Position numbers and translations under genes: made by a program
The notes under the pieces: model-generated
What the model saw: only the letters and a program-made list of their open reading frames with translations
The model's database searches: none
Told to the model about the DNA's origin: nothing
Source: Gammaproteobacteria bacterium
GTDB lineage: Bacteria > Pseudomonadota > Gammaproteobacteria > Eutrophobiales > Eutrophobiaceae
Length of the DNA: 64,000 bases
Reading direction: 5' to 3'
NCBI GenBank assembly: GCA_041556555.1
Contig: JBFFIE010000001.1
Span: forward strand, 64,671-128,670
Part shown: positions 30,799 to 32,503 of the stretch, piece after piece
Layout: the number at the start of each line of letters is the position of its first letter
Position numbering within the stretch: position 1 is the stretch's first letter

Positions 30799-32175
30799 TC
30801 AGTCCAGCAGCCCAAGCATCTCTTTAACCCGGGTAAACTTTTCCCTAGGTTTATTTTTCTTTTTGCCAGCATTGATTTCAGCGGTATCGATCTTGCCCCA
30901 GTCCGAGTAGGTAACGTAACGTATATTTTTTGCCTGCAGCAGCGGAATGATCCCTTCAACCCCGGCTTTTTGATCTTTGGTGTCGTTTTTCTGAATATCT
31001 TCCAGCAAGGCATTTACTGTCGCAACACTGTCTGCGCGGTTGGTGCCGATAATGCCGGTTGGTCCCCGTTTGATCCAGCCAGCTGTATAAAGTTGTGACA
31101 TGAACTTACCCGATTCATTCACTCTGCCATCTGTGTTTGGAATAATGCCGCGTTTGTCATCGAATGGGGCACCGGGAATGGGGACACCGCGATAGCCGAT
31201 GCTGCGAAACAGGATGCCGGTTTCCAGCTCGATGGTTTCTCCGGTGCCGCGTGCCGATTGGTTGAAGGCATCGCCTGACAGAGTATTTTTTTCGAGGACT
31301 AATTTTTGCAGCCTGTCGTCACCAACAAGTTCTTTGGGACTGAGCAGAAACAGGAAATGGCAACGCTTTTGCTTACTGCTGGGTTCCCGCTCCGAGAAGT
31401 CACGGAATAACTGGTAAACCTTGGCGTTGCCTGCATTACCCTTGTCTTCGAGTTCTGCCTTGCTTGCAGGATTCAGCTCAAGCTCATCCGGATTAACTAT
31501 CGGGTCGCAGTCTGCCAGTTCGCCAAATTCCCGCAGTTCCTTGGGCGTGAACTTGGCCTGTGCCGGGCCACGACGACCGATGACATAGATATCACGAACC
31601 CGGCTTTCTGCGAGTACATCCAGCGCGTGCTGGGCAATGTCCGTGTGTTTCAGCTCATCAACAGTTTTTGAGAGTATACGACTGACATCGGCCGCCACAT
31701 TACCCTGGCCGATGATAACGGCATTGGGATGTGAGAGGTCAAATTCCCTGTCCCGGTAATCCGGGTGACCATTGTACCAGCCGACAAATTCGGTTGCGGT
31801 GTGACTGCCTTTCAGGTCCTCGCCTGGAATGCCCAGTTTACGATCAGATTCCGCCCCACAGGTAAAAATTACGGCATGGTAGTTTTGTTTTAATTCATCA
31901 ACTGTCAGGTCCTTGCCAACAGTGACATTACCCAGGAAAGTAAAGCCGTCATTTTGTGCGATCTTGTCATAAAGTTTAATTGCCTGTTTGAGTTTTTGAT
32001 GATCAGGGGCAACACCACTACGGACCAGGCCGAAAGGCGAGGGCAGGCGTTCGAGCATGGTAACCTGCACGGTCAGATCAGATTTAAACAGTGCCTCGGT
32101 GGCATAGAAGCCGCTCGGCCCGCTGCCCACGATCGCGACCCGTAAGGGATTATGCCCGGTGCCAGGATTGCTCAT
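30799..32175 (-). CDS. FprA/adrenodoxin-reductase-type NADPH:ferredoxin oxidoreductase
   Basis: 458-aa ORF with RVAIVGSGPSGFYATE (FAD GxGxxG), GLVRSGVAPDH and IIGQGNVAADV (NADP GxGxxA). The start lies 22 nt after the ferredoxin stop. Confidence 0.8.
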   Translation of the reverse strand: MSNPGTGHNPLRVAIVGSGPSGFYATEALFKSDLTVQVTMLERLPSPFGLVRSGVAPDHQKLKQAIKLYDKIAQNDGFTFLGNVTVGKDLTVDELKQNYHAVIFTCGAESDRKLGIPGEDLKGSHTATEFVGWYNGHPDYRDREFDLSHPNAVIIGQGNVAADVSRILSKTVDELKHTDIAQHALDVLAESRVRDIYVIGRRGPAQAKFTPKELREFGELADCDPIVNPDELELNPASKAELEDKGNAGNAKVYQLFRDFSEREPSSKQKRCHFLFLLSPKELVGDDRLQKLVLEKNTLSGDAFNQSARGTGETIELETGILFRSIGYRGVPIPGAPFDDKRGIIPNTDGRVNESGKFMSQLYTAGWIKRGPTGIIGTNRADSVATVNALLEDIQKNDTKDQKAGVEGIIPLLQAKNIRYVTYSDWGKIDTAEINAGKKKNKPREKFTRVKEMLGLLD

Positions 32176-32197
32176 TATATACCCGTTTCAAATCTGA

Positions 32198-32503
32198 TCA
32201 GAAACCCAGTTCTGCCTTCCGTTCCTCCGCTCCTGGCAGGGGGTCCATTTGCTCTTCACAGACCGGGAGTTCGGGTGCACGTTCTGCGTTAATGGCAATC
32301 CAGTGCTCCTTGTCATCGGGGATATCATCACCTTCATATATAGCCTGTACCGGACATTCCGGGATGCAGGCACTGCAATCGATACAAACGTCCGGATCGA
32401 TATACAGCATTTCATCATCATAATGAAAACAGGATACCGGACAGACGGTAACGCAATCTGTAAATCGACACCCCTTGCAGTTGTCAGTCACTATCGTTGT
32501 CAT
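32198..32503 (-). CDS. fdxA: 7Fe-type (FdxA / Azotobacter FdI-like) ferredoxin
   Basis: The 101-aa ORF aligns to the FdI pattern TDNCxxCxxTDCVxVCPVxCF...CIDCxxCxPECPxQAI: TDNCKGCRFTDCVTVCPVSCF...CIDCSACIPECPVQAI. Confidence 0.85.
   Translation of the reverse strand: MTTIVTDNCKGCRFTDCVTVCPVSCFHYDDEMLYIDPDVCIDCSACIPECPVQAIYEGDDIPDDKEHWIAINAERAPELPVCEEQMDPLPGAEERKAELGF

Follow-up and report, generated by a model that had tools for sequence, protein, structure and literature searches.

In textbook bacterial methylotrophy, the tetrahydromethanopterin (H4MPT) route ends with the redox-dead formyltransferase/hydrolase complex Fhc and free formate. In the FhcABCD complex of Methylorubrum extorquens (PDB 6S6Y; PMC6926001) the FhcB subunit is without pterin ligands, FwdD is absent, no electron carrier is needed and formate is released. 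The archaeal formylmethanofuran dehydrogenase (Fwd) of M. wolfeii, FwdABCDFG (PDB 5T5I), contains the polyferredoxin subunits FwdF and FwdG, and a 2024 review of the electron modules of Fwd enzymes covers polyferredoxin, the heterodisulfide reductase (Hdr) supercomplex and F420 reductase without mention of NADP (PMC11656701). For bacterial homologues of FwdB, the only earlier mention is in a phylogenetic survey (PMC10100899), and fwdD was stated in a 2016 opinion paper not to be present in Proteobacteria (PMC5020050). Here we describe a locus from an uncultured marine methanol-oxidising gammaproteobacterium (G000, genome 98% complete), located in a 64,000-nucleotide (nt) window of contig JBFFIE010000001.1 (assembly GCA_041556555.1) to which all coordinates refer. 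Seven genes follow one another in the order fwdD-fwdB-fwdA-ftr-fwdC-fdx-fprA, as seen in the open reading frame (ORF) listing and the sequence, and all of them are on the minus strand. The last two encode a 7Fe ferredoxin (Fdx) and a flavoprotein of the FprA/adrenodoxin-reductase type. We consider it probable that these two genes constitute the electron-transfer module of a bacterial Fwd, in which electrons would pass from formyl-methanofuran (formyl-MFR) to FwdBD, then to the 7Fe ferredoxin, then to FprA and finally to NADP+. The basis for this reading is the gene anatomy, the catalytic and cofactor motifs, a linkage that withstands rearrangement and a specialised ferredoxin paralogy; docking of the partners, direction of electron flow and NADP+ as the final acceptor are what we infer.

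Homologues of FwdA, FwdB, FwdC and FwdD, the Cys-His-Arg site and the [4Fe-4S] motif are shared with the M. wolfeii enzyme. In contrast to it, FwdF and FwdG are missing and a single 7Fe ferredoxin of the FdI type together with FprA comes after fwdC; the formyltransferase gene lies inside the putative operon, as in Fhc; and the host is an aerobic-type methylotroph, in which oxidative operation of the enzyme is to be expected. The absence of polyferredoxin subunits had already been pointed out in the first-pass annotation of this DNA, and indeed no FwdF/FwdG polyferredoxin ORF is present in the block according to the ORF listing. Products of fdx and fprA would hold the place of these archaeal subunits. 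With the M. extorquens Fhc the block shares its set of subunits, including Ftr, and its place in metabolism; unlike Fhc, the block described here keeps the redox site and possesses its own carrier and reductase. Among oxidising Fwd enzymes, the F420-reducing Fwd of Ca. Ethanoperedens thermophilum (PMC11493965) is a precedent for a swap of the electron module that serves to pull C1 oxidation. There, electrons go to a bound flavin reductase and not to a free low-potential ferredoxin, and the acceptor is F420, reached via an F420 reductase on an iron-sulfur bridge, whereas the acceptor here would be NADP+, reached via an unrelated flavoprotein of the FprA type. What would be new is the electron module, the kind of enzyme (Fwd) being known. 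In a literature search of incomplete coverage, we found no paper linking formylmethanofuran with FprA, adrenodoxin reductase or a 7Fe ferredoxin.

As judged from sequence, the upstream cluster is a Fwd-like, redox-competent formylmethanofuran dehydrogenase. Matches of FwdB to its archaeal counterparts of solved structure have E values of 8e-122 (9sfi_Q) and 1e-111 (5t5i_B), and on TIGR03129, for which the cut-off is 327.8, FwdB scores 512.7 bits. Its CxxCxxxC...C [4Fe-4S] motif, Cys119-His120 and Arg291 are invariant among the aligned relatives, and the stretch SVCHGP is kept in 84 of 84. FwdD matches Pfam Molydop_binding (E 3.7e-10) and the NCBIfam FwdD model (E 5.7e-20), its 71.7 bits on the latter being below the cut-off of 175, which belongs to a tungsten-specific exception model. 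The locus thus holds a FwdB with the [4Fe-4S] motif and the catalytic Cys, His and Arg, and a FwdD cap. The neighbouring paralogue FhcB is without the catalytic Cys-His and Arg. A separate observation concerns this FhcB (29304-30581, minus strand), which keeps the full CxxCxxxC...C iron-sulfur motif (C15, C18, C22 and C40) and may still bind a [4Fe-4S] cluster; the M. extorquens FhcB is without that N-terminal iron-sulfur domain altogether (PMC6926001).

The predicted ferredoxin resembles the 7Fe ferredoxin I of A. vinelandii (PDB 1frk/1axq) over residues 4-94 with E values of 4e-29 to 2e-28, and M. smegmatis FdxA (2v2k) with an E value of 3e-16. It shares its fold and its cluster-binding cysteines with A. 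vinelandii ferredoxin I and proteobacterial FdxA (E about 1e-28). The cysteine pattern CxxCxxxxCxxxCP...CxxCxxCxxxCP, retained in 68 of 68 orthologues, is that predicted for one [3Fe-4S] and one [4Fe-4S] cluster. Unlike FdxA, the protein falls below the cut-off of the FdxA_Protbact equivalog (NCBIfam NF045490; 111.9 bits against 135) and shares only about 50% identity with the housekeeping FdxA of its own genome, which is encoded on contig C31 and passes that cut-off with 154.8 bits. A search of the genome with Fdx returned only fdx, fdxA and one weak match elsewhere. Housekeeping FdxA is present in nearly every genome compared. The Fwd-linked ferredoxins are 74-97% identical across their clade, which makes Fdx the best conserved protein of the block, and such orthologues were found in 23 Fwd genomes among 24 relatives, plus one genome without Fwd (G019). 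Comparison of the sequences therefore assigns the Fwd-linked ferredoxin to a paralogue distinct from housekeeping FdxA, forming a separate clade tied to Fwd.

FprA aligns end to end (residues 10-455) with M. tuberculosis FprA (1lqt) at E 7.5e-112 and also matches bovine adrenodoxin reductase (1cjc) at E 6e-95. With its FAD motif GSGPSG from residue 17 and NADP motif GRRGP from residue 200, and with this homology, it is a predicted NADPH:ferredoxin oxidoreductase. The GRRG segment, which is the 2'-phosphate site by alignment to 1lqt, occurs in 64 of the 67 FprAs of the clade. Both the full-length homology and the type of 7Fe partner are shared with the M. tuberculosis FprA (1LQT) and mycobacterial FdxA (2V2K) and with adrenodoxin reductase (1CJC). 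In those systems electrons run from NADPH to ferredoxin and feed P450s and other acceptors, whereas the context here implies the opposite direction, from ferredoxin to NADP+, and a link to a molybdo/tungsto-pterin enzyme. In the FprA tree, the Fwd-linked proteins group apart from four Fwd-less gammaproteobacterial FprAs (41-47% identity), a split that has 74% support in the Shimodaira-Hasegawa-like approximate likelihood ratio test (SH-aLRT) and is accompanied by two long outgroup branches (1.45 and 3.68). FprAs from Gemmatimonadota form one clade with 99% support.

The functional link between the pair and Fwd had at first been proposed from adjacency, and its proposed check was whether ferredoxin and FprA genes accompany clusters with FwdD in other genomes. 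A scan based on the FwdB alignment, with one genome per species, yielded 580 relatives, and the best 80 of these were taken for analysis of their loci. Most of these 80 are unclassified metagenome-assembled genomes (MAGs) of Gammaproteobacteria, a few being labelled Gemmatimonadota or Alphaproteobacteria; titles among them include Thiotrichaceae UBA973, Legionellales SP289, USCg_Taylor, Ca. Porisulfidus and Ca. Oxydemutator. Homologues of fwdD are common in the gammaproteobacterial MAGs of this set, in conflict with the 2016 statement (PMC5020050). Both fdx and fprA stand beside Fwd in 60 of the 66 FwdB loci from other genomes that have enough sequence to judge. FwdC, Fdx and FprA follow one another in this order in 18 of 20 loci of relatives from about 20 genera, and the two exceptions are a locus cut just upstream of fprA (L005) and one with fdx-fprA only (L013). 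Three genera of the same family that have only Fhc (G003, G012, G023) lack everything from fwdD to fprA as one block, so that mptG faces fhcBADC-fdsBA, and they contain only the housekeeping FdxA. Genes following fprA vary among the loci and can be fhcBADC, fdsBA, mptG or unrelated ones. The pair is found upstream instead (fdx-fprA-fwdDBA) in two loci labelled Gemmatimonadota, L126 and L133, and in G383, a gammaproteobacterial genome. A functional tie of the pair to Fwd is suggested because the linkage survives both changed neighbours and changed gene order.

In a sample of 401 genomes drawn evenly from the class, 21 were positive for FwdB, 20 of these 21 also had FprA, and neither gene was present in 373. 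The lone FwdB-positive genome without FprA (G034) has a completeness of 75%, and its contig breaks off within fwdC. Among the 20 genomes with both genes, G063 is unpublished, and the count depends on it in small part. The expected co-occurrence is therefore strongly borne out at the level of loci as well as genomes, and synteny, block-wise absence and the inverted order in another phylum now support the link beyond mere adjacency. Some individual loci deserve mention in their own right. L048 (G008:C1:2294000-2312000) is without fhcBADC and has the order fwdDBA-ftr-fwdC-fdx-fprA-fdsBA, with its fprA in two frames (residues 1-356 and 345-458) owing to a frameshift or an assembly error; in L060, L064 and L078 fprA is directly followed by fdsBA. 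Several loci (L099, L055, L060, L067 and others) bear titles such as 'uncultured Mycobacterium sp.' or 'uncultured Enterobacteriaceae bacterium'. These labels look wrong, their predicted FwdB and FprA clustering tightly with those of unclassified Gammaproteobacteria.

The main rival to this interpretation is that fdx and fprA encode a general-purpose NADPH:ferredoxin pair which keeps the cellular ferredoxin pool reduced for assorted enzymes and hitch-hikes with the C1 island. We regard it as unlikely. Four lineages that have no FwdB retain an intact fprA, and three of these retain fdx as well. Both Fwd and Fhc are absent from G019, a genome of the same family, in which fdx and fprA are intact and lie together some 0.9 kb downstream from nrdAB, the genes for class I ribonucleotide reductase (L045, 8715-10455). 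In G143 only fragments of fwdA are left, between fdx and fprA; in G227 mptG faces fdx-fprA, which is followed by fhcBADC, and there is no Fwd; and in G403 only fprA remains, adjoining fhcBADC after a MacAB-type insertion. The linkage is also broken from the other side: G006 keeps Fwd and fdx and has lost fprA, neither gene was found within about 7 kb beyond fwdC in L113 and L125, and three Gemmatimonadales loci (L122, L127, L134) have fprA with no adjacent fdx, a search upstream of fprA finding no ferredoxin there, which may lie elsewhere in these genomes. All of these cases weigh against the reading of the pair as the outlet of Fwd, and the shared descent of the genomes, which makes them non-independent as samples, has to be held against it too. 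Since four Fwd-less lineages keep fprA and three of them fdx as well, the pair is not strictly dedicated to Fwd and is of some use in its absence. Moreover, no canonical Fpr-type ferredoxin-NADP reductase (FNR) was found in the genome of the window, FNRs of the TrxR type lying outside that search, and for this reason FprA may also serve other ferredoxin clients, much as mycobacterial FprA serves several ferredoxins and P450s (PMC6208970).

Against a general-purpose role, a separate housekeeping FdxA already exists in nearly every genome, FprA was not found in the 373 genomes of the class sample mentioned above and follows FwdB in nearly all of the positives, and the adjacency to Fwd persists across different neighbours, gene orders and phylum labels. 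Relatives with only Fhc manage without the pair. In addition, the FprAs of the four Fwd-less lineages (G019, G143, G227 and G403) branch off at four different points within the Fwd-linked clade, three of the four on long end branches, and therefore reflect secondary losses of Fwd. Two side observations belong here. The genome has only two NAD_binding_1 proteins (contigs C2 and C40; L143 and L144), one being a 2Fe-2S reductase resembling BenC/MmoC and the other a flavoprotein of 439 aa. The Gemmatimonadales loci L122, L127 and L134 show the order fprA-fwdDBA-ftr-fwdC, followed directly by a second divergent B-A-Ftr-C set, the B protein of which has 33-35% identity to FwdB, and then by mch.

A different role could be imagined from the position of the pair among cofactor genes. 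NADPH would supply electrons through FprA and ferredoxin to the biosynthesis of H4MPT or methylofuran, or to the activation or repair of the Mo/W centre, with no catabolic flux. The genes for mptG and ATP-grasp ligases flank the block, and in G227 and G403 the genes stay in the H4MPT/Fhc island although Fwd is gone. However, genomes with only Fhc make the same cofactors without the pair, the distribution follows FwdB and not the biosynthesis genes, and no ferredoxin-dependent biosynthetic enzyme could be identified beside it. We therefore hold this explanation to be quite improbable.

In the preferred reading, with fdx and fprA as the outlet of Fwd, the reaction would proceed in five steps. 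Ftr would transfer the formyl group from H4MPT to the furan cofactor, FwdA would hydrolyse it to formate inside the complex, and FwdBD, with its Mo/W-pterin and Cys119, His120 and Arg291, would oxidise the formate to CO2. Electrons would then exit singly via the [4Fe-4S] cluster of FwdB to the 7Fe ferredoxin, and FprA, through its FAD, would gather two of them and reduce NADP+. The net reaction would be formyl-MFR + NADP+ -> CO2 + MFR + NADPH, on a route parallel to the adjacent Fhc and NAD-linked formate dehydrogenase (FDH). FprA is a plain single-FAD enzyme and no bifurcation partner is present in the block. The NADP+/NADPH couple has a potential of -320 mV. As the formyl-MFR/CO2 couple lies at about -530 mV (PMC11656701), electron flow from Fwd through ferredoxin to NADP+ would be downhill, and the reverse would be unfeasible unaided in view of the single-FAD FprA and the missing bifurcation partner. 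Such a chain would fit the known ability of M. tuberculosis FprA to reduce mycobacterial ferredoxins, including the 7Fe-like FdxA (PMC6208970), and the existence of oxidising Fwd enzymes with tailored electron modules, of which Ca. Ethanoperedens with its F420 reductase is an example (PMC11493965, PMC11656701).

These potentials also bear on the opposite direction, in which NADPH-reduced ferredoxin would drive the conversion of CO2 to formyl-MFR by the Fwd-like enzyme as an entry to C1 assimilation. The [4Fe-4S] cluster of 7Fe ferredoxins has a very low potential, archaeal Fwd runs reductively and the catalytic residues are intact here. Nevertheless, from NADPH to the CO2/formyl-MFR couple the path is strongly uphill, the single-FAD FprA has no bifurcation partner in the block, and the gene set around it is oxidative, comprising XoxF, Fae/Mch/MtdB, Fhc and NAD-linked FDH. 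We consider this direction to be highly improbable.

For the first transfer step of the Fwd-ferredoxin-FprA chain, prediction of a complex between FwdB and Fdx gave a score of 0.46, the best of three controls reaching 0.00, with at least 96% contact agreement between runs and a predicted local distance difference test (pLDDT) value of at least 90 for the partner; the output named no interface. Of 80 solved complexes 58 reach the mark used for such predictions, as do 2 of 110 mismatched pairs; passes with a score of 0.60 or less number only 7 among these 80 and include both mismatches that passed. The support for docking is thus weak and makes the chain only a little more likely, and the predictor may have passed the pair because it had learned solved FwdB-FwdG interfaces. 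The weakness of this result has to be set against the proposed chain.

The arrangement of the block and its neighbours is summarized in the table. The coordinates and the two short spacings reported in the first-pass annotation are exact, both in the ORF listing and in the sequence, and the Shine-Dalgarno AGGAGG between fwdC and fdx sits five bases ahead of the ATG of fdx.

Table. Features of the Fwd block and the adjoining genes in the 64,000-nt window
Feature	Position	Strand	Description
fwdD	37348..37734	-	128 aa; Mo/W-pterin capping domain; first gene of the block
fwdB	35951..37312	-	453 aa; catalytic subunit
fwdA	34242..35885	-	547 aa; amidohydrolase subunit; TIGR03121 710.6 bits
ftr (ftr/fhcD-like formyltransferase)	33349..34245	-	298 aa; Pfam FTR + FTR_C; NF002554 438 bits
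fwdC	32543..33352	-	269 aa; TIGR03122 257.5 bits; TAA stop at 32545-32543
fwdC-fdx spacer	32504..32542	-	39 nt; Shine-Dalgarno AGGAGG at 32514-32509
fdx	32198..32503	-	101 aa; predicted 7Fe ([3Fe-4S][4Fe-4S]) FdI-type ferredoxin; ATG at 32503-32501
fdx-fprA spacer	32176..32197	-	22 nt (sequence)
fprA	30799..32175	-	458 aa; predicted FAD flavoprotein, FprA/adrenodoxin-reductase type (NADPH:ferredoxin oxidoreductase)
fprA-fhcB spacer	30582..30798	-	217 nt; likely boundary or internal promoter region
fhcBADC	25887-30581	-	true Fhc copy, downstream of the 217-nt gap
fdsB + fdsA	21416-25890	-	NAD-type formate dehydrogenase genes, after fhcBADC

From the close spacing it had been proposed that these genes are transcribed together. 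Consensus scans, which by themselves decide nothing, found no promoter-like or terminator-like site in the 39-nt or the 22-nt gap. On the coding strand, the sole promoter-like site within the genes or their spacers lies behind fprA, at 30759..30731. The 217-nt spacer that follows fprA does not fold like a terminator (folding z-score +2.4). In RNA libraries from two studies (marine sediment and seawater), contigs of at least 99% identity extend over genes of fwd, fdx and fprA; all four RNA runs consist of contigs, which give no strand, ends or expression level, stretches lacking cover count as no evidence, and carry-over of DNA is possible. The X15 contig spans at least 32048-32236, as inferred from the table of matches, and thereby crosses the gap between fdx and fprA; it must be counted against too firm a conclusion that a contig over two genes is not the same as a single transcript. 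The genes fwdDBA-ftr-fwdC-fdx-fprA may form one operon. Separately, contigs X15 (30299-30951) and X18 (30503-30852) bridge the end of fprA and the spacer into fhcB, which hints at read-through from fprA into the Fhc and FDH genes if the contigs are not DNA carry-over.

The interpretation of fdx and fprA as an electron outlet is supported as far as comparative genomics reaches. A more far-reaching version of it can be put forward only as a rather doubtful proposal. According to this, Fdx would be a fixed FwdG-like subunit with FprA docked onto it, and FwdDBA-Ftr-FwdC-Fd-FprA would be one machine converting formyl-H4MPT directly to CO2 and NADPH. Polyferredoxin, Hdr supercomplex and F420 reductase would thereby be joined by a fourth electron module of Fwd, one whose genes would have moved as a cassette between Gammaproteobacteria and also into genomes that are labelled Gemmatimonadota or Alphaproteobacteria.

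If the proposed chain is true, the known set of Fwd electron modules would be widened by an NADP-linked one, and these bacteria would possess a formate-free last C1 step yielding NADPH. The module is found in uncultured Gammaproteobacteria from marine, sediment, sponge-associated and soil (USC-gamma) habitats. Since it is widespread among them, it would bear on the NADH/NADPH balance and the Mo/W demand of abundant C1 oxidisers.

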